From IMG/VR virus record IMGVR_UViG_3300017989_000027: a stretch of DNA of 49,973 nt; one strand, 5' to 3'. The stretch's first letter is position 1. Every line of letters starts with the position of its first letter. The notes under the pieces are model-generated. The model made no database searches, had not been told where the DNA came from, and was given only the letters and a program-made list of their open reading frames with translations. Below are positions 1-49,973 of this stretch, one piece after another. Made by a program: the position numbers and the translations under genes. The DNA comes from a virus.

Positions 1-123
1 GTCAGGGTCTTCGGGTGGGCGGCGTTCCTGAAAGGATTGTGGTTCTGCCGAACGACACGGTTCCTTGTTGGTTGATTCTCCTGTAACGGGTGTTTGTGGG
101 CAGTTGGTTGGATCGGGGACACA
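1..123. repeat. Terminal direct repeat. Bases 1-123 are identical to 49851-49973, consistent with a circular-assembly overlap and a unit genome of 49,850 bp.
   Basis: Both ends read base by base. gtcagggtcttcgggtgggc...gatcggggacaca occurs at both termini. Confidence 0.95.
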
Positions 124-339
124 ACCAAACTGCTTAGACCGCTTTGCATGAATCTGTCGCTCTCGTGACTTTTCTATAGAAGATTGTATGGCGTCGAATA
201 CCTCCTTTCGATGGATGGGCATTTCCCGTGGGGCTTCAATTCCGAGACGTACCTTGTCGCCTCGGATTTCTACGATGGTGATGGTGACCGAATCGTTGAT
301 AACGATACTCTCGTTCTTTTTGCGGGATAGGATTAGCAT
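1..339 (-). CDS. csrA: CsrA/RsmA-family RNA-binding regulator, 115 aa, with a ~55-aa C-terminal extension. The ORF runs off the window start and closes at TAA 49842-49844 across the circular junction. It is absent from the ORF track.
   Basis: Hand translation from ATG 337-339 gives [113 protein letters not shown], then GD and stop. CsrA hallmarks are present: MLxLxRK..E.I.I, GD.VRLGI.AP, IHR.EV. An SD-like GAAGGGA lies upstream. Confidence 0.85.
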
Positions 340-378
340 GGTAATTCCCTTCGTGGATTGGGGTTGAGGGGGTTGGGT

Positions 379-456
379 AGAAAACAACGGGCCGGGTGGG
401 ATGCCCATCCGCACGGAAGGCTAACTCAGCAATTGTCCTCGCCTTCCTCCCGGCCC
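379..456 (-). terminator. Structured element with a U-run between orf124 and csrA. It could be an intrinsic terminator, an attenuator or the csrA leader.
   Basis: In mRNA sense, an outer stem GGGCCGGG/CCCGGCCC encloses hairpin GGAAGGC-19 nt-GCCUUCC (loop contains GAGGACAA) and GGAU-GGGC-AUCC. It is followed by GUUGUUUUCU. Confidence 0.4.
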
Positions 457-474
457 GTCGCTCTCAGATCGAGA

Positions 475-849
475 TTAGAATGCCATGTCCCAAAGGACTT
501 CGGCAACGGTAATCAGCATACGGCCGATCAGAGGCTCGATGATCTTGTCGGGTCCCGGGCAGTCGATTACTTTTGATACATCTTCCCAGGCAGCGGCTAC
601 CACGTCGAGGAATAGCCGCTTGCGTTCAACCAGGTCTTCCGGGATCAGTTCTGATAGGGTTTTGGAGACTTTGATGATGGTCCCGACGATTGGCTTCAGG
701 TCGTCCAAACCAAAGCCGTCCTGGAATCGGATCTCCAGGGTGGATCGAAGCAGGCGGTACTGTTGTTTGATCTGGTCCCAGGCTTCGCTGGAACTCCAAT
801 TCGTGACTAGACGGTCTGGAAATGGTAACGCTGACAGTGACGTGTTCAT
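475..849 (-). CDS. Hypothetical protein, 124 aa.
   Basis: Intact ORF with ATG 849 preceded by SD CAGGAG. First gene downstream of the sigma70-like promoter. No recognisable motif, and not FliW-like. Confidence 0.6.
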   Translation of the reverse strand: MNTSLSALPFPDRLVTNWSSSEAWDQIKQQYRLLRSTLEIRFQDGFGLDDLKPIVGTIIKVSKTLSELIPEDLVERKRLFLDVVAAAWEDVSKVIDCPGPDKIIEPLIGRMLITVAEVLWDMAF

Positions 850-925: not shown

Positions 926-953
926 ATTTTAGCGATGTTTTGGGACTTGTCAA
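926..953 (-). promoter_or_regulatory. Sigma70-like promoter for the orf124-csrA unit.
   Basis: The minus strand reads TTGACA (953-948), a 16-nt spacer, then TAAAAT (931-926). The -35 overlaps one of three GGGACTTG repeats. Confidence 0.45.
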
Positions 954-2983: not shown

Positions 2984-4877
2984 CTGGAACCTCCTTTGCG
3001 TCCATCCAGTTGGTTGTGACGATCTTGAACGAGACGGGAGTTTTGATCCCCATCCTGGCACCTTCAAATTCCATTCGCTCCTTGATGAATTTGATTAGCC
3101 CCTTCGACTTGCGGTAGCGGTTGGGAACCTCGAAGATCAACTCATCATGGATGTTGTTGATGATTTCCACACCGGGGAAGCGTCTGGTGCCCAGCCCATC
3201 ATAGAAGAGGGCGAGCATGGCCTTCTTCACGATTTGACCGGCAGTCCCTTGGATTACGTAGTCAACCGCTTTATACGTTCGATCCCCTCCGACTGCAAGG
3301 GGATAGCCATCAGCCGTGTAGACAACCCCATCCGCTTCAGCTTGGTTGATAGTCCTCCGGACAAACCTGGCAATGTCCGTGTAGGCTTGGCGGAATAGAT
3401 CACCAATGTTTTCTACACCTGTCATGGCTTGGAGTTTTGCTTTCCCAGCACCATAGACGATAGCAAAGTTGGCATTCTTGGCGGCCTTCCGAGTAATCCC
3501 GCAAAGGTCTGCCGTCCATTGATGAATGTCAGCCCCAGCCTCAAAGGCTTCCAACATGTTGGGCTCGTCTGCCATGACGGACAGGATTCTGAGTTCCAAC
3601 TGGCTGTAGTCAACACAGTACCAAAAGGTTCCCTGAATGGGACGGAACGCCTTACGTAGAGGTAACTCCGCACGGACCCCAACATTCTGTGGATTGGGGT
3701 TGGACCCGGAGAACCGTGTGGTTTTCGTTCCCGTCTGATTTAGGGATGGGTGAAGACGGCAGGCTTGGTCTTCATGGGCCCTGGCTGAGTCCATGTAGCC
3801 TTGCAGATACTTCATCCCCGTTTCCGCCTTGCGACTTGCATAGAGGGCATCGAGCAGATTCTTTTGTTTGCGGGTTAGGTCATGTTCCCGAAGCAATTCC
3901 AAGGTCTCTGCATCTGTTGAAAGTTGCCCCTTGGGTGTGCGTTTGACGGACGGAAAACCATACTTCTCATACATTAAGATCCGAAGTTGATAGGATGATT
4001 GTGGATTGAATTCCGGAAGACCATGTTCCTTCGCCCTTTTCTGGAGGAAAGTATGGTACTGTCTTTTCCTACCATTCAAGTCAATACAGAGTCGGGCTGT
4101 CCCATCCATGTCCAGTGGTAATCCAATGGCTTCCATGCGAAGCAAAAGGGGTTGGAGTAGGAGATGGTTTCGGTAGTGCTCGAAGTCCCGATCAAAGCTG
4201 CCAGCCTTAGACCAGCTATTGAGATGTTTCCACAGATGTTTCCAGAGTCTAATTGTCCGGACCACATCTGCAATCCCGTACCGCAGTGTCTTGTCCTCCA
4301 AGGGTTTCAAGTGTGGGTTCAGTGCCTTTGGCATCCATGAGTCCCATTGGGTGACCTCACCTAAAGGCCAAGGTGGGTGTTGTTTGCTTGCCTGCCGTCT
4401 TGCCCTCCGGATTTCGTCCATCATGTCTTCCTGATCCGTTGGAAGCATCCCGAGGTACTTGATGGCAAGGTCTTTCAGCCCTATGGCATCTGACGAATTG
4501 AGGACATGGGCGAGACAAATGGTGTCTTCGACGTGGTGCCCGAAGGGAAGGAACTGGCCCTGCTCTATGGCGTCCTTAGACCATTGCTTGACTTGCTTCA
4601 ACCATTTGGTGTATGGGATGAAGGTGAGGAACAGGGCCAAAAGATCGAATTTGGCATTGTGGAATATCCAAGGGTCGTATTTGTTGAGGGTGACAAGCAT
4701 TCGTTTGACTTCCCCACTTGAATACTCTACTTGCCTTGTCAGTGGATTGACGGGCCACTGCCAGGAATAGACTTTCTCGTCTTCATCGCAGGCAGTGACC
4801 ATGAAGGCCCGGTGACCGGAATGGAGAAGGGTCCCGGTAGTCTCCGTATCAATCGCTATGGATTTAGGGTTTCGCAT
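2973..4877 (-). CDS. Family-A DNA polymerase with 3'-5' exonuclease domain, 634 aa.
   Basis: Exo I IAIDTETTG, motif A DYSQLELRIL, motif B RKAAKNANFAIVYG, motif C NIHDELIFEV. Confidence 0.9.
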   Translation of the reverse strand: MRNPKSIAIDTETTGTLLHSGHRAFMVTACDEDEKVYSWQWPVNPLTRQVEYSSGEVKRMLVTLNKYDPWIFHNAKFDLLALFLTFIPYTKWLKQVKQWSKDAIEQGQFLPFGHHVEDTICLAHVLNSSDAIGLKDLAIKYLGMLPTDQEDMMDEIRRARRQASKQHPPWPLGEVTQWDSWMPKALNPHLKPLEDKTLRYGIADVVRTIRLWKHLWKHLNSWSKAGSFDRDFEHYRNHLLLQPLLLRMEAIGLPLDMDGTARLCIDLNGRKRQYHTFLQKRAKEHGLPEFNPQSSYQLRILMYEKYGFPSVKRTPKGQLSTDAETLELLREHDLTRKQKNLLDALYASRKAETGMKYLQGYMDSARAHEDQACRLHPSLNQTGTKTTRFSGSNPNPQNVGVRAELPLRKAFRPIQGTFWYCVDYSQLELRILSVMADEPNMLEAFEAGADIHQWTADLCGITRKAAKNANFAIVYGAGKAKLQAMTGVENIGDLFRQAYTDIARFVRRTINQAEADGVVYTADGYPLAVGGDRTYKAVDYVIQGTAGQIVKKAMLALFYDGLGTRRFPGVEIINNIHDELIFEVPNRYRKSKGLIKFIKERMEFEGARMGIKTPVSFKIVTTNWMDAKEVPDGQ

Positions 4878-5101
4878 GTGAACACCTCATTTCTCAGGGC
4901 TTCGATAAGCCAACGTACAGTAGGCACAGGAAGCTCAACACGGACAATACCATCTGATGATTGTATCTCCTCGTTCGTCGGAAGACCTACAACAAATGCT
5001 GATTGATTGAGTGGGAGATTGATAACAATCTTTGGTGGAAGGATCGTGTTCACAGGAACACTATGCCCAACCGAGATGTACTTTCGCTTTTCGTCTGACA
5101 T
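4856..5101 (-). CDS. Hypothetical protein, 81 aa (MSDEKRKY...).
   Basis: I chose the internal ATG 5101 with SD AAAGGA. The longer track ORF (to 5254) runs into the pentamer array. Overlaps the polymerase start by 22 nt. Confidence 0.55.
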   Translation of the reverse strand: MSDEKRKYISVGHSVPVNTILPPKIVINLPLNQSAFVVGLPTNEEIQSSDGIVRVELPVPTVRWLIEALRNEVFTCETLNP

Positions 5102-5122: not shown

Positions 5123-5621
5123 GTGTGAAAACCGTTCCTTTCCACTCCGTTCCATTCCCCTCCCGTCCAATCCCGTCCCCTCCTTTCCATTCCAATCCAG
5201 TCTTCTCCGCTCCAGTACGCTCCTTTCCATTGAATGGATGATAAGGACAACCATTCCAGTCCAATCCTCTCCCCTCCTCTCCTGTCCTTTTCAGTCCAAT
5301 CCAGTCCTTTCCGGTCCCATCCATTCCGTTGTGGATGATGAGGACGCCATTGCGTTCCGAATCCTTTCCGCTCCAGTCCTCTCCCGTCCGGTCCTCTCCT
5401 GTCCAATCCTCTCCCATCCCCTCCATTCCGTTCCGATCCATTGAATGGATGATGAGGACAACCGTTCCAGTCCACTCCTCTTCAATCCCTTCCCGTCCAG
5501 TCCAATCCCCTCCTATCCCTTCCCGTCCATTGAATGGATGATGAGGACGCCATTGCGTTCCTTTCCGGTCCTTTCCTATCCTCTCCCGTCCCGTCCTTGC
5601 CTTTCCGCTCCTTTCCGGTCC
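5123..5621 (-). repeat. GGANN pentamer satellite locus R1. Five blocks of 19, 14, 16, 12 and 12 units separated by four 29-33-nt anchors.
   Basis: The + strand parses as (NNTCC)n with exact 5-nt phase. Anchors lie at 5229-5257, 5328-5358, 5440-5468 and 5529-5561 (ATTGAATGGATGATGAGGAC..GTTCC). Confidence 0.9.
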
Positions 5622-7196: not shown

Positions 7197-7400
7197 GTGA
7201 TGAAAAACCATTGCTTTCCGATCCCGTCCGATCCGCTCCCCTCCTTTCCGCTCCCCTCCCCTCCGTTGTGTACAGAACCTTGAGAAAACCATTCCATTCC
7301 ATTCCGGTTCGATCCACTCCGGTCCAATCCGGTCAGCTCCCGTCCCTTCCTTTCCAGTTCGGTTCGTTCCTATCCAATCCTCTCCCCTCCGCTCCTTTCC
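7197..7400 (-). repeat. GGANN pentamer satellite locus R2. Blocks of 10 and 21 units with one anchor at 7265-7295.
   Basis: (NNTCC)n on the + strand. Starts 1 nt after stop codon 7402-7404 and ends 19 nt from ATG 7178. Confidence 0.9.
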
Positions 7401-7401
7401 T

Positions 7402-7701
7402 TTAGTGTTCACCCTTGCTGATGATCCCAGCAGCCTCTTGGAATGTTCTGATCCGGAAGATTGGCTTGCCGTCTTCCGTACAACCGAAGGCTGTTTCGAG
7501 TGCTATCGCAACCCGATTGACCAGTTGGGTGTATGCCCCAGGTAACAGATTCCGGAGGGCACCCGGAAGTGGATCGCTGACTTCGTACAACTTGGTCCGT
7601 TCGTTGATCTGAACTCGCTTTGCAGTCACATGGCGTTGCTCAAGCAACATGCGACCCATGATGGACTCCGGTGATAGACCACGCTTGATAACCTTGGGCA
7701 T
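7402..7701 (-). CDS. Hypothetical protein, 99 aa (MPKVIKRGL...).
   Basis: I chose the internal ATG 7701 with SD AAGGGGA. The N-terminal extension in the track ORF (to 8016) is translated pentamer array. Confidence 0.6.
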   Translation of the reverse strand: MPKVIKRGLSPESIMGRMLLEQRHVTAKRVQINERTKLYEVSDPLPGALRNLLPGAYTQLVNRVAIALETAFGCTEDGKPIFRIRTFQEAAGIISKGEH

Positions 7702-7713
7702 GATAGTCCCCTT

Positions 7714-8003
7714 GTGTGAAAGTGTGAAAACCATTCCGTTCCGATCCTTTCCCCTCCGCTCCACGCCACTCCCTTCCAGTCCATTCCACTCCTCTCCATT
7801 GTGTATCGGACCTTGGAAAACCATTCCGTTCCGCTCCGCTCCGCTCCCTTCCCTTTCTGTCCTTTCCCATCCAGTCCCATCCACTCCCTTCCAATCCGCT
7901 CCAATCCATTGTGTGTGGAACCTTGGGAGAACCATTCCAGTCCTCTCCATTCCTCTCCTCTCCCATCCAGTCCAATCCGATCCAGTCCAATCCGTTCCAC
8001 TCC
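7714..8003 (-). repeat. GGANN pentamer satellite locus R3. Blocks of 12, 16 and 13 units with anchors at 7798-7827 and 7908-7938.
   Basis: (NNTCC)n on the + strand with exact multiples of 5 between anchors. Starts 2 nt after stop 8006-8008. Confidence 0.9.
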
Positions 8004-9773: not shown

Positions 9774-10027
9774 GGTGAAGGAGCCATTGCTTTCCGATCC
9801 CGTCCCTTCCTCTCCCGTCCTGTCCAATCCCCTCCGATCCCATCCCTTCCAATCCATTGTGAATGGATGAGGACAGCCATTGCGTTCCGAATCCAATCCT
9901 CTCCCTTCCACTCCTTTCCTTTCCCATCCGCTCCCTTCCGCTCCCATCCGATCCGCTGTGAATGGATGAGGACAACCGTTCCTATCCTATCCTATCCAAT
10001 CCAATCCCGTCCTTTCCTCTCCCCTCC
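9774..10027 (-). repeat. GGANN pentamer satellite locus R4. Blocks of 12, 13 and 9 units with anchors at 9856-9888 and 9955-9982.
   Basis: (NNTCC)n on the + strand. The anchors carry the palindrome TCCATT-GTG-AATGGA. Confidence 0.9.
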
Positions 10028-10654: not shown

Positions 10655-11272
10655 TTAGACGCCGGTGCCGAGAGGTTGCTCCTCGAACTTGGTAACCTTG
10701 AACTTTCCGTACTGCGGCCGGAAGTCGGACAGACCTACCAGCACGGAGGCAGAACGCAACCAGGACATGATCCGGTCAGGATCAACTTGGTCCGGCATGA
10801 ACTGGACGGTGAACTCAACCGCCCAATTCTTGAAGATCGGACGACAGCGGAGGGTCGGTGCCCCGGACACGCGAACCATTCGCACGTCCCGGCAACCCTC
10901 GGCCTTGAACATCTTTTGCTTTTCCTTGGGACCGTCGTACTCCAGTGGGCCAGTCTGCCCAATCTGTACTGCCGACTTGGCGAAGGGTCCATCCTTGTGC
11001 TTCTTCGCTCCTGCGATCAACATTGCATGGACGTTTTCCGTCGGCCAGTAGGGTTGCCCCTGTTCGTTGAGGTATAGGGAACCCTCAAAGTCCGCAAGAA
11101 ACATCTCCTCTTGAGCTTCCTCGCTCAGGGCCTTCCCACGCTTTCGCGAAGCGTTGATCTTGGAGATCCACTTCGCATACTTGTTTGTCGGATCGGCCTT
11201 CTGCCCATTATTCATCAACGCCGGGCCGATTCCCTCGATACGAACCTTCAGCTCTGAATACAGTTCAGACAT
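10655..11272 (-). CDS. Hypothetical protein, 205 aa (MSELYSELKV...).
   Basis: I chose the internal ATG 11272. The track ORF extension to 11713 is translated array. Confidence 0.6.
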   Translation of the reverse strand: MSELYSELKVRIEGIGPALMNNGQKADPTNKYAKWISKINASRKRGKALSEEAQEEMFLADFEGSLYLNEQGQPYWPTENVHAMLIAGAKKHKDGPFAKSAVQIGQTGPLEYDGPKEKQKMFKAEGCRDVRMVRVSGAPTLRCRPIFKNWAVEFTVQFMPDQVDPDRIMSWLRSASVLVGLSDFRPQYGKFKVTKFEEQPLGTGV

Positions 11273-11313: not shown

Positions 11314-11493
11314 CAACCGTTCCGCTCCTCTTCGCTCCAGTCCTCTCCCTTCCTCTCCAATCCTCTCCGCTCCGTTCCAGTCCCCTCCCATCCACTCCTT
11401 TGTGTATAGGACCTTGGAGAACCGTTGCGTTTCGTTCCACTCCCTTCCCATCCAATCCGCTCCGATCCCGTCCGGTCCTTTCCTGTCCCTTCC
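11314..11493 (-). repeat. GGANN pentamer satellite locus R5. Blocks of 15 and 11 units with an extended anchor at 11399-11438.
   Basis: (NNTCC)n on the + strand, ending in the half-anchor TTTGTGT. Confidence 0.9.
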
Positions 11494-20700: not shown

Positions 20701-20770
20701 ATACTATACATATATATATAAGTATATATAAGTATATAGTAGTAGTAAGTAGTAGTAAGTAGTGAGTTCG
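20701..20770. repeat. AT-rich tract with a (TA)n run and five phased 10-nt units that each start with AGT.
   Basis: catatatatata, then agtatatata, agtatatagt, agtagtaagt, agtagtaagt, agtgagttcg. It is by eye the most AT-rich stretch of the genome. Confidence 0.8.
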
Positions 20771-35500: not shown

Positions 35501-36721
35501 CTACGGGAAGTTGATTGTGCCGTCAACAACTGCCCGGGGGATGTAAAGGGCGGGCAGGCAGTTGTCGACTTCAATCAGATCAAAACCAGAGGGCTGCGTC
35601 GTCGGTTCAGCCCATCCAGCGAGGCCAAAGCGTTCTGTCGATTGGGCAACCACGTTTTCCCGAACCAGTTCGGAACCTTCGTGCAACTCGAACCAAACAG
35701 GGCTCGGGTCGGGGCAGAAGTAAGCGTGGTCGTCTGGCACAAACTTGGCGAAGGCGTAGGCCGAGGTACCATCCCACACCTTAAGGCCACCATCGTAGAC
35801 GTGCCAGGTGAGCCAAGGCATGGGCCGAAGAACGATGTCGAATGAGGTATTGCCGTTAATCCTGTCGGGATCTCCCGGATCTCCCCATCCGGGGCTGACC
35901 CGATAGTCGGTCCACACCGCATTGGCCGATCCGCACGCATTGCGAATCTCCGTGTTGTTGATGACCCAAACCCAGGTGGATGAGTTGATCCAGACGTGGC
36001 GGAGCGGCATACCGTGCTGGACCTCGAATGCAGCGTTCAGCAGGTGCATCTGAGTCAAGATCGGTGCGTTGGTAGTGTCCGACCATTTCAGGGTTGCCGT
36101 GCCGTTATCGAAAAGCTGTTGAGCCGCATTGTAGCTCGTTGGGATGAGCTTGTTCGCATCCAAGTCCGTCATCTCGCATTCGCCGAGGTTGCCGGCAGGA
36201 ACGCGGTAGTTGATTTCGGGACTGGTCGGTGTTGCGGCATCCCGGAGCAGGATGTTATCGCCTTGCAAGTCCAGATCGAAACCGCCACGGAACATGCGGG
36301 AGATCATGAACTCCCGGGCGTTGTAGAACCGCTGGGCCAGCGTTTCCTCCTGCCTGGTCACGTAGCGTTGTCCGCGGTTGTCGATTTCTCCCCAGGGACG
36401 ACCAAGCGGGCGGGTACGATAGAGGCGGGATTCCTCCAAGTGCTTCTTTTCGTGCCCACGCCACATGGTTGCCGAGACGTGCCCGATTTTCTGCAAGGCA
36501 ACAGTCGCCGGGCCGGAATCCAAATCGCGGCCGGTGGCAATGTCTCGCACGTTGTCCATGATGTCCCAGCCGGTAGCATTGCCACCAACCGGATTGATAT
36601 TGGGACCTCCCGGGAGGCACCCAAGGAATCGTTGGAACACCTGTTGCGGTGTTCTGATCCTGGAGATGACCCGAGTTACAACCGGGGCCTTCAGGACTTG
36701 GGGAAGTGTGATGTTGGCCAT
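35501..36721 (-). CDS. Major capsid protein, lambda gpE-like, 406 aa.
   Basis: It follows the protease/scaffold and D-like decoration genes in lambda-like order. The layout resembles gpE, and a strong terminator follows it. Confidence 0.7.
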   Translation of the reverse strand: MANITLPQVLKAPVVTRVISRIRTPQQVFQRFLGCLPGGPNINPVGGNATGWDIMDNVRDIATGRDLDSGPATVALQKIGHVSATMWRGHEKKHLEESRLYRTRPLGRPWGEIDNRGQRYVTRQEETLAQRFYNAREFMISRMFRGGFDLDLQGDNILLRDAATPTSPEINYRVPAGNLGECEMTDLDANKLIPTSYNAAQQLFDNGTATLKWSDTTNAPILTQMHLLNAAFEVQHGMPLRHVWINSSTWVWVINNTEIRNACGSANAVWTDYRVSPGWGDPGDPDRINGNTSFDIVLRPMPWLTWHVYDGGLKVWDGTSAYAFAKFVPDDHAYFCPDPSPVWFELHEGSELVRENVVAQSTERFGLAGWAEPTTQPSGFDLIEVDNCLPALYIPRAVVDGTINFP

Positions 36722-36818
36722 GGAAGGTCTCCAAAGTTGGTGTTAGAAGGAAGGGGCTGATCTGCGGGCCTAGAGTTGGTTCAGCCCCTTCCTGTTCATC
36801 CGAATTTGTCAAGCTGCG

Positions 36819-44218: not shown

Positions 44219-44474
44219 GGTGAAAACCATTCCGATCCCTTCCATTCCTATCCGCTTCACTTCGTTACTATCCGTTCCGCTACTTTCCACTTCCATCCGC
44301 TCCTTTCCGTTCCGATCCTCTACTTTCCATTCCCATCCGATCCAATCCGTTCCGCTCCGCTGGATGGATAAGGGCAACCATTGCTTTCCATTCCCGTCCC
44401 CTCCCCTCCTCTCCCGTCCCATCCACTACCTTCCATTCCCGTCCTGTCCATGCCCATCCAATCCAGTCCTATCC
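44219..44474 (-). repeat. GGANN pentamer satellite locus R6. Blocks of 25 and 17 units with an anchor at 44359-44389.
   Basis: (NNTCC)n on the + strand, starting 1 nt after the terS stop. It is more degenerate than the others (TAC and TTC variants). Confidence 0.85.
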
Positions 44475-49841: not shown

Positions 49842-49973
49842 TTAGTCCCCGTCAGGGTCTTCGGGTGGGCGGCGTTCCTGAAAGGATTGTGGTTCTGCCG
49901 AACGACACGGTTCCTTGTTGGTTGATTCTCCTGTAACGGGTGTTTGTGGGCAGTTGGTTGGATCGGGGACACA
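49842..49973 (-). CDS. csrA: 3' end of csrA. It duplicates 1-123 and adds the last two codons and the TAA stop.
   Basis: The frame from ATG 339 continues ...GAC GGG GAC TAA across the junction. Confidence 0.8.
   Translation of the reverse strand, partial: CVPDPTNCPQTPVTGESTNKEPCRSAEPQSFQERRPPEDPDGD
49851..49973. repeat. Second copy of the terminal 123-bp overlap.
   Basis: Identical to 1-123. Confidence 0.95.

Follow-up and report, generated by a model that had tools for sequence, protein, structure and literature searches.

The 49,973-nucleotide (nt) stretch of viral DNA deposited in IMG/VR as IMGVR_UViG_3300017989_000027, called here the window at its full length, carries an intact gene for a protein of the CsrA/RsmA family, which straddles the junction of the circular assembly. 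The protein has kept the residues of the family that contact RNA, it is encoded by a phage genome, and its nearest kin are CsrA proteins of Pirellulales. Our preferred reading, to which we give a probability of roughly 0.6, is that the gene would encode a host-derived translational regulator, which dimerises and acts at GGA sites in mRNAs of the host or of the phage. An earlier interpretation made from the DNA letters without database searches (the sequence-only reading) had tied this protein to the hundreds of GGA motifs of the same genome. Those motifs appear instead to be the guide RNAs of VIPR (Viral Interference Programmable Repeat), a phage-encoded silencing system, near whose loci CsrA genes are found more often than expected.

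Results

An intact csrA gene across the circular junction

The minus-strand frame that starts with the ATG at 339 is open through base 1, over 113 codons. Bases 1-123 are repeated exactly at 49851-49973, no exact end overlap longer than 123 bp exists, and reading onward from 49850 adds GGG GAC TAA, which completes a product of 115 amino acids (aa) already recorded as database protein P0001. In all four independent assemblies, stretches of 5.8-10.3 kb agree base for base with the circularised window across the 49850/1 join. In the JGI contig Ga0180431_10000638 (sample 3300017987) csrA runs uninterrupted at 36392-36739 of 49973, and the JGI gene call is the 115-aa product with PF02599. The gene also lies inside contiguous sequence in contig k141_2134930 of ENA ERZ27256778 (MEGAHIT, 49991 bp) and in both Logan assemblies, SRR14699969 and SRR6963311. 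The assembly sizes correspond to 49850+123 (JGI) and 49850+141 (k141 assembly). Given that the end overlap changes with the assembly, the terminal repeat is what assemblers leave over on a circular graph of 49,850 bp and does not demonstrate a physical genome end. The locus is an intact, expressed-looking gene on a circularly assembled tailed-phage genome of 49.85 kb. It is missing from the list of open reading frames (ORFs) of the window because that list leaves out ORFs running off an end. Thus, a cut through a circular contig can conceal a gene from an ORF scan.

A complete CsrA domain with a long C-terminal tail

Profile searches assign residues 1-52 to Pfam PF02599 with 89.5 bits (cut-off 27, E = 1.4e-25), covering 52 of the 53 model positions, and the NCBIfam CsrA equivalogs are passed as well (NF002469, 82 vs 73; TIGR00202, 78.3 vs 70.1). 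An alignment of the protein with E. coli CsrA (1Y00) and P. fluorescens RsmE (2JPP) needs no gaps and shows that L2, L4, R6, K7, I42, H43, R44, E46 and V47 are kept; K7 is as in RsmE, and position 40 is Met, not Val. We take the RNA-contact positions, in E. coli numbering, to be L2, L4, R6 and R/K7 of strand beta-1 and V/I42, R44 and I/V47 of strand beta-5. The list of critical CsrA residues stems from alanine scanning and from RsmE-RNA structures. A single-sequence monomer model made with AlphaFold2 (mean pLDDT 61.5) has strands within residues 11-35, a helix at 44-70 and no predicted secondary structure beyond residue 70. The tail, from about residue 61 to 115, contains three Cys (C73, C80, C95) and many Pro and Glu, and a profile search found no Pfam match in it. 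The product is thus modelled as a complete CsrA domain (1-52), a helix to about residue 70 and a disordered Pro/Glu/Cys tail of 45 residues.

Most of what the sequence-only reading said of the gene itself agrees with these data. Its translation from ATG 339 is identical to ours letter for letter and all its coordinates are correct; the closure at TAA 49842-49844 after 115 aa, which it had deduced from the end overlap, is borne out by reading onward; the four assemblies cross the junction exactly, with neither frameshift nor stop. The CsrA/RsmA identity, for which it had proposed a check by hidden Markov model, lies far over the Pfam threshold, and the Cys/Pro/Glu-rich tail that it placed outside the canonical domain has that composition and follows a Pfam domain ending at residue 52. 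Its description of the gene as unannotated and hidden did not survive, since JGI itself calls the gene with PF02599; the gene seemed hidden because of where this circular copy was linearised.

Kinship with Pirellulales and with other mobile CsrA copies

The closest single-domain relatives, 66-83% identical, are labelled Pirellulales, Pirellulaceae or Pirellula, so a Planctomycetota-like host and gene capture are the simplest inference; the gene was most likely captured from such a Pirellulales-like host. The chromosomal CsrAs of this group (P0036, P0096, P0118) have the same full-length domain and share the HR.EV signature with the phage protein, and other cellular Planctomycete CsrAs (P0026, P0028) likewise end in variable low-complexity tails. 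In contrast to the chromosomal proteins, the window copy is phage-encoded beside ORFans, has the substitutions I3, S17, T19 and M40, and bears a 55-residue tail that has no detectable homologue.

The best-scoring database relatives (P0002-P0025) are built differently from a single-domain CsrA. In these proteins of 122-182 aa a linker of 20-30 residues connects two complete tandem CsrA domains, which makes them single-chain "pseudo-dimers"; they are mostly metagenomic, and a few have carbon storage regulator as their only annotation.

CsrA on phages is not new. With tblastn we found it in 81 phage records of INPHARED (Pseudomonas F116-like, Vibrio, Providencia and other phages, many annotated as carbon storage regulator), and 59 IMG/VR loci carry a CsrA similar to the window copy. 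Sobrero and Valverde (2020) had reported csrA in 30 of 2517 phage genomes, or 1.2% (PMC7366521), and Campa et al. (2021) searched GenBank and IMG/VR v3 for phage RsmA/CsrA and proposed that it may suppress host defences such as CRISPR-Cas (PMC8450108). In this respect the sequence-only reading, which named CsrA paralogues of plasmids and ICEs, was overstated: phage-borne CsrA is documented by these records and studies, this is an already known kind of gene, and the window adds one more example. Compared with the phage proteins of the F116 gp24/"RsmM" group and of Vibrio and Providencia phages, the window protein has the same host-like domain on a tailed phage, but it is 41-52% identical to them, belongs with another host phylum and has an unrelated tail. 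In gp24 of the cultured Pseudomonas phage F116 (L390 8001-8372), 123 aa long, about 70 residues form a C-terminal extension unrelated to that of the window protein, so phage CsrAs with a long extension were known before. The window genome has VIPR, whereas three cultured CsrA phages do not.

Mobile copies of the host's global translational regulator are also known outside phages, as with RsmQ of plasmid pQBR103 (PMC9928087). RsmQ and CsrT of Legionella integrative and conjugative elements (ICEs) are likewise thought to reprogram host behaviour; the carrier here is a phage and not a conjugative element.

The period-5 GGA arrays as guide RNAs of VIPR

On the minus strand, 236 GGA triplets stand at a strict 5-nt period in 19-20 arrays, which form six intergenic clusters; no such array lies on the plus strand, and all are thus on the csrA strand. 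The arrays have 6-17 units each. Their NN positions are close to random, at about 3.8 of 4 bits, and the bases beside GGA show no preference. Behind every array comes a conserved 3' tail of some 30 nt (AAYGGYTNTCC...CATTCAAT in the cluster at 5136..5621). The arrays interleave with genes of the replication module, namely DNA polymerase, an AAA_24 ATPase, a uracil-DNA glycosylase-like ORF and a nuclease-like ORF. Coding repeats of the type G-x-D/E-W/R/G-x were considered and rejected, as the GGA persists whichever of the three codon phases it falls in and two clusters (9793-10027 and 44231-44474) have stops in every frame. TAG is the sole stop possible in a perfect array, and open frames are therefore expected by chance.

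A scan for at least 10 units found the same high-entropy GGA-core arrays in at least 32 IMG/VR loci. A host feature was also rejected, because low-entropy simple repeats made up almost all that a GTDB scan returned. The only match in a cellular genome with phage-like high-entropy arrays was L215 (GTDB PAKT01000050.1, 15 kb, from a Spongiibacteraceae metagenome-assembled genome), which holds 13 of them and a Vipr homologue and is probably a viral or proviral contig binned with that genome.

When ORFs were clustered with the arrays masked, one family of about 200 aa was present in 29 of 34 array-bearing loci. This family is phrog_4652, whose function is unassigned in PHROG. The member in the window, Vipr, is 28% identical over 196 aa to ALH47069.1 of phage phiSUSP1 (E = 3e-23), the gene of which is flanked by GGT arrays. 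Its AlphaFold2 model (pLDDT 86) matches Csm3, Cmr4 and Csm5 in Foldseek with probability 1.0, E = 3e-5 and a TM score up to 0.56, and the protein has a G-loop-like GLSDFRPQYGKF motif; these three are RAMP proteins of the Cas7 type, which form the backbone of type III CRISPR complexes. Moreover, 133 cultured phages carry phrog_4652, among them Felixounavirus/Suspvirus, Mycobacterium LittleE and Pseudomonas LESphi2, and in these it is flanked by intergenic period-5 arrays with GGT or GGC cores. The core is GGA in the window, GGT in Felixounavirus Alf5, GGC in LESphi2 and LittleE, and mostly GGC in 80 further IMG/VR Vipr loci.

VIPR was described in 2026 as a phage-encoded system in which the minimal RAMP protein Vipr polymerises on a vrRNA made of 9-16 GGY/NN repeats and an invariant tail; each protomer sequesters a GGY triplet, and the NN dinucleotides are the guide, reading the DNA target with one skipped base (bioRxiv 10.64898/2026.04.26.720920,.720927). 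The system silences competing phages, usually with a vap gene, and vap genes are called DNA-interacting; GGY>GGA was among the substitutions assayed, perturbing the GGY motifs reportedly abolished silencing in SUSP1, and some VIPR types use "a related consensus" to GGY (same preprints).

Given the homology of the window Vipr to a phiSUSP1 protein encoded between GGT arrays, the window arrays are read as VIPR guide RNAs. As in VIPR, phage-encoded tandem repeats of 5 nt lie on both sides of a RAMP homologue; their GGN does not vary, their NN is hypervariable, and a conserved tail follows them at the 3' end. Unlike the published systems, the third base of the core is not a pyrimidine, the window having GGA throughout, and the vrRNAs, about 20 in number, do not form one compact locus but are scattered through the replication module in six intergenic clusters; CsrA is no part of the published system. 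The window is judged to hold a complete VIPR system, a GGA-core variant with an unusually large and dispersed vrRNA repertoire. The candidate vap gene has weak similarity to the downstream gene of SUSP1 (E = 0.06), and no Pfam or PADLOC match, and none of the fetched loci contains a homologue of it. Self-targets of the vrRNAs under the 1-nt skip rule were seen neither in the window nor in the fetched loci, and searches with exact patterns, no mismatch being allowed, gave no match for three guides in IMG/VR or for two in JGI metagenomes.

Array layout also varies within the GGA-core group. In L079/L134, L112, L167 and L215 the GGA vrRNAs are split by very short conserved punctuation (ACGGCTGTAAT, CGTAAC, GTGGCCGTAAA), whereas those of the window are separated by tails of 25-35 nt, which suggests different array architectures or different processing.

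The sequence-only reading had paired the CsrA with the hundreds of GGA motifs, which on that view could be a CsrB/RsmZ-like sponge or dedicated CsrA targets. Such a role would fit 236 GGA in 19 non-coding arrays that are all on the csrA strand, GGA being the CsrA core motif. However, equivalent arrays with GGT or GGC cores stand beside the same neighbour protein elsewhere, and the arrays track Vipr (in 29 of 34 loci) and not CsrA. The near-random NN positions show no A/U preference around GGA, and the strict 5-nt spacing is far tighter than in Csr sponge RNAs, which show GGA in hairpin loops. No Rfam family of Csr/Rsm small RNAs matched the window at E <= 1, and the published Vipr protomers hold each GGY triplet. 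We reject a CsrB-like sponge on the strength of the conservation of Vipr beside the arrays, the variation of their core triplet and the VIPR preprints. As the primary function of the arrays a sponge or target role is largely refuted; we consider it very improbable. The motifs are vrRNA repeats flanking a Vipr gene.

CsrA genes near VIPR loci

A CsrA gene lies within 10 kb in 6 of 80 Vipr-centred viral loci and in 0 of 87 other viral loci (Fisher p = 0.011); for comparison, the whole-genome rate of csrA in phages is 1.2% (PMC7366521). Conversely, Vipr is present in 5 of 59 loci centred on a Planctomycete-type CsrA (6 kb each side), in 0 of 80 loci with an E. coli-type CsrA and in 0 of 3 cultured CsrA phages examined. 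The absence from the E. coli-type loci indicates that the link between CsrA and VIPR is restricted by clade or habitat. We read the co-occurrence as real but clade-restricted, and its cause may be function or a shared slot and host range.

The linked loci differ in arrangement, and some of them resemble operons. In L051 (9-1249) csrA (9-170), a 38-nt gap, vipr (209-757) and then four vrRNAs follow each other on the same strand. In L322 (4298-5773) only 6 nt separate the csrA stop from the first GGA vrRNA, and vipr comes next. In L336/L337 (300-1770) csrA stands about 150 nt past the post-vipr vrRNAs, in the usual vap position, and L079 combines 19 GGA arrays with csrA. CsrA is also found near VIPR in L321 (10001-11564), L001, L032 and L036/L037. 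The VIPR-linked CsrAs are diverse (27-77% identity), and the GGA core is not enriched among the CsrA-linked VIPR loci, most of which have GGC or GGT. In the window itself some 10 kb separate csrA from vipr, and csrA is preceded by a promoter-like site of its own.

Cys-containing C-terminal extensions were seen on three VIPR-linked CsrAs, those of the window (bases 1-120), L032 and L322. The L032 protein (4782-5072) ends ...WPACAICKCPLHG...RVCAE and that of L322 (4298-4675) has CGK...CRKC...C; no sequence similarity was detected among the three extensions.

These data raise the possibility that CsrA-family proteins are a recurrent RNA-binding accessory of VIPR in phages of Planctomycetota-like hosts. 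CsrA might bind the vrRNA precursor or its tail and so bear on vrRNA maturation or loading, or it might control the translation of vipr or vap; in a GGA-core variant, phage CsrA, host CsrA and Vipr might compete for the same triplets. Besides the two enrichments, the tight same-strand layouts of L051 and L322, the vap position of csrA in L336 and L337 and the 19 GGA arrays of L079 are in favour of such a role, and the diversity of the linked CsrAs (27-77% identity) argues against a single inherited block. However, most VIPR loci lack CsrA and most CsrA phages lack VIPR, the cores of most CsrA-linked loci (GGC or GGT) are not CsrA motifs, and the window csrA is distant from vipr with a promoter-like site of its own. 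Moreover, in temperate phages csrA and vipr both occupy the early accessory slot beside cI, so that co-location could arise without shared function. CsrA is unmentioned in the main text of either VIPR preprint, where vap is DNA-interacting (bioRxiv 10.64898/2026.04.26.720920,.720927). We therefore regard an accessory role as a tentative explanation, with the odds against it. The pairing of CsrA with arrays put forward in the sequence-only reading may still have something to it, given the enrichment of CsrA near VIPR loci; however, this enrichment is independent of the GGA core and absent for E. coli-type CsrA.

Gene neighbourhood and genome

The features of the window are collected in Table 1.

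Table 1. Positions of csrA, its surroundings and the VIPR components in the window
Feature	Position	Strand	Basis or remark
csrA codons 1-113	1..339	minus	ATG at 339-337; translation
CsrA domain, residues 1-52	bases 339-184	minus	Pfam PF02599
csrA codons GGG GAC and TAA stop (49844-49842)	49842..49850	minus	reached once the duplicated end is removed
Second copy of csrA codons 73-113	49851..49973	no strand	exact duplicate of bases 1-123
Shine-Dalgarno (SD)-like GAAGGGA	346..352	minus	6 nt upstream of the csrA ATG; contains GGA; read from the sequence, putative function
Long stable stem-loop, then U-tract UUGUUUUCU	381..465	minus	between orf124 and csrA; RNA fold
orf124, 124 aa, upstream neighbour of csrA	475..849	minus	ORF list; called in all four assemblies
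Sigma-70-like promoter, TTGACA-16 nt-TAAAAT, 11/12 matches	926..953	minus	upstream of orf124 and csrA; consensus match alone
Five (GGANN)n vrRNA arrays, 12-17 units	5136..5621	minus	each with a tail of about 30 nt
Six (GGANN)n vrRNA arrays	7217..8003	minus	clusters 7217-7400 and 7735-8003; likely 98-aa gene between
Three (GGANN)n vrRNA arrays, 13 + 13 + 10 units	9793..10027	minus	downstream of candidate vap; stops in all three frames
Candidate vap, 189 aa	10039..10608	minus	position alone; where VIPR loci carry vap
vipr, 205 aa (P0121), Cas7/Csm3-like RAMP	10655..11272	minus	phrog_4652, E 4e-39; directly between arrays
Two (GGANN)n vrRNA arrays, 15 + 12 units	11321..11493	minus	directly upstream of vipr
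Three (GGANN)n vrRNA arrays	44231..44474	minus	other side of the genome; stops in all three frames

The 85-nt stem-loop in the csrA leader folds at -49.1 kcal/mol (z = -4.35), and none of 200 shuffled sequences was as stable. Its inner hairpin holds several GGA motifs; a simple terminator scan missed the stem-loop because its loop is long. The stem-loop may be a terminator, an attenuator, a processing element or an autoregulatory leader. The 5 GGA in 135 nt of the leader were considered as a sign of autoregulation and not used, as they are not clearly over the genome background.

Upstream of csrA lies orf124 and downstream are two secreted-looking ORFs of 256 and 388 aa. None of the three has a Pfam or PADLOC match, FliW included, or a homologue in the more than 400 fetched loci, which agrees with the earlier remark that orf124 is not FliW-like; the Pfam scan for a FliW partner, which covered part of the window ORFs, found none among these three.

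The window encodes a large terminase (TerL), a family-A DNA polymerase and a primase, and no close relative of the genome was found among 50,697 deposited phage records (INPHARED). Searches for transfer RNAs and Rfam families in the window gave none of relevance. An AT-rich tandem repeat at 20713-20767, made of TATATAAG/TAAGTAATAG units, lies between long ORFs, the rest of the genome having 54% G+C; it may be an origin or promoter region.

Discussion

The favoured explanation is that the phage gene was captured from a Planctomycetota-like host and that its product would take the intertwined form usual for CsrA dimers, with five strands and a C-terminal helix, and might in addition form heterodimers with the host CsrA, to which it would be about 75-80% identical. 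The dimer might bind GGA sites at the ribosome-binding regions of host or phage mRNAs and thereby shift translation during infection. Its role would be that of an auxiliary "regulator homologue", as already proposed for other phage, plasmid and ICE copies of CsrA. The period-5 GGA arrays would stay outside this role, as VIPR guides whose GGN triplets are held by Vipr and not as dedicated CsrA targets.

Several points weigh against this explanation. The dimer is left to inference, the structure prediction being that of a monomer from one sequence (mean pLDDT 61.5). No homologue of the tail was found among 8000 scored CsrA relatives or in the more than 400 fetched loci, and the host assignment depends on one gene. 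Moreover, the enrichment of CsrA near VIPR suggests that the two may be non-independent, and as the vrRNA core of the window equals the CsrA core motif, some interaction between them is physically plausible.

The same dimer-forming core could have the opposite effect. A tailed phage protein about 75-80% identical to the Pirellulales CsrA might act as a poison subunit, which heterodimerises with host CsrA or blocks its partners and so inactivates it; the unusually long disordered tail with its three Cys would suit such a function. However, the RNA-contact residues are intact, as expected of an active binder, and cellular Planctomycete CsrAs (P0026, P0028) commonly end in a long variable tail, as F116 gp24 does too. 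It is thus improbable that the protein is an inhibitor of this kind.

It is also conceivable, with a very small likelihood in our view, that csrA is a recently captured passenger gene without a role in infection. The high similarity to host-type CsrA, the unique ORFan neighbours in a variable slot and the different content that L124, a distant relative, has past the primase gene are what such a gene would show. In contrast, the frame is intact, the key residues are kept, an SD motif is present and the sequence is identical in four datasets, and the repeated independent occurrence of CsrA in phages argues for selection.

To conclude, the gene alone, read as a host-derived regulator, is a Planctomycetota-type addition to the set of phage-borne CsrAs, with an unusual disordered Cys/Pro/Glu tail. 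The wider value of the work lies in the context: the VIPR repertoire of the genome is large and its GGA core non-canonical, and in one group of viral contigs CsrA stands beside VIPR loci more commonly than by chance. If this link merely reflects a shared slot for accessory genes, the finding is an ordinary one. If it is functional, CsrA would be the first RNA-binding accessory factor of a system proposed to predate CRISPR, and RNA-guided silencing between phages would be coupled to the global translational regulator of the host.

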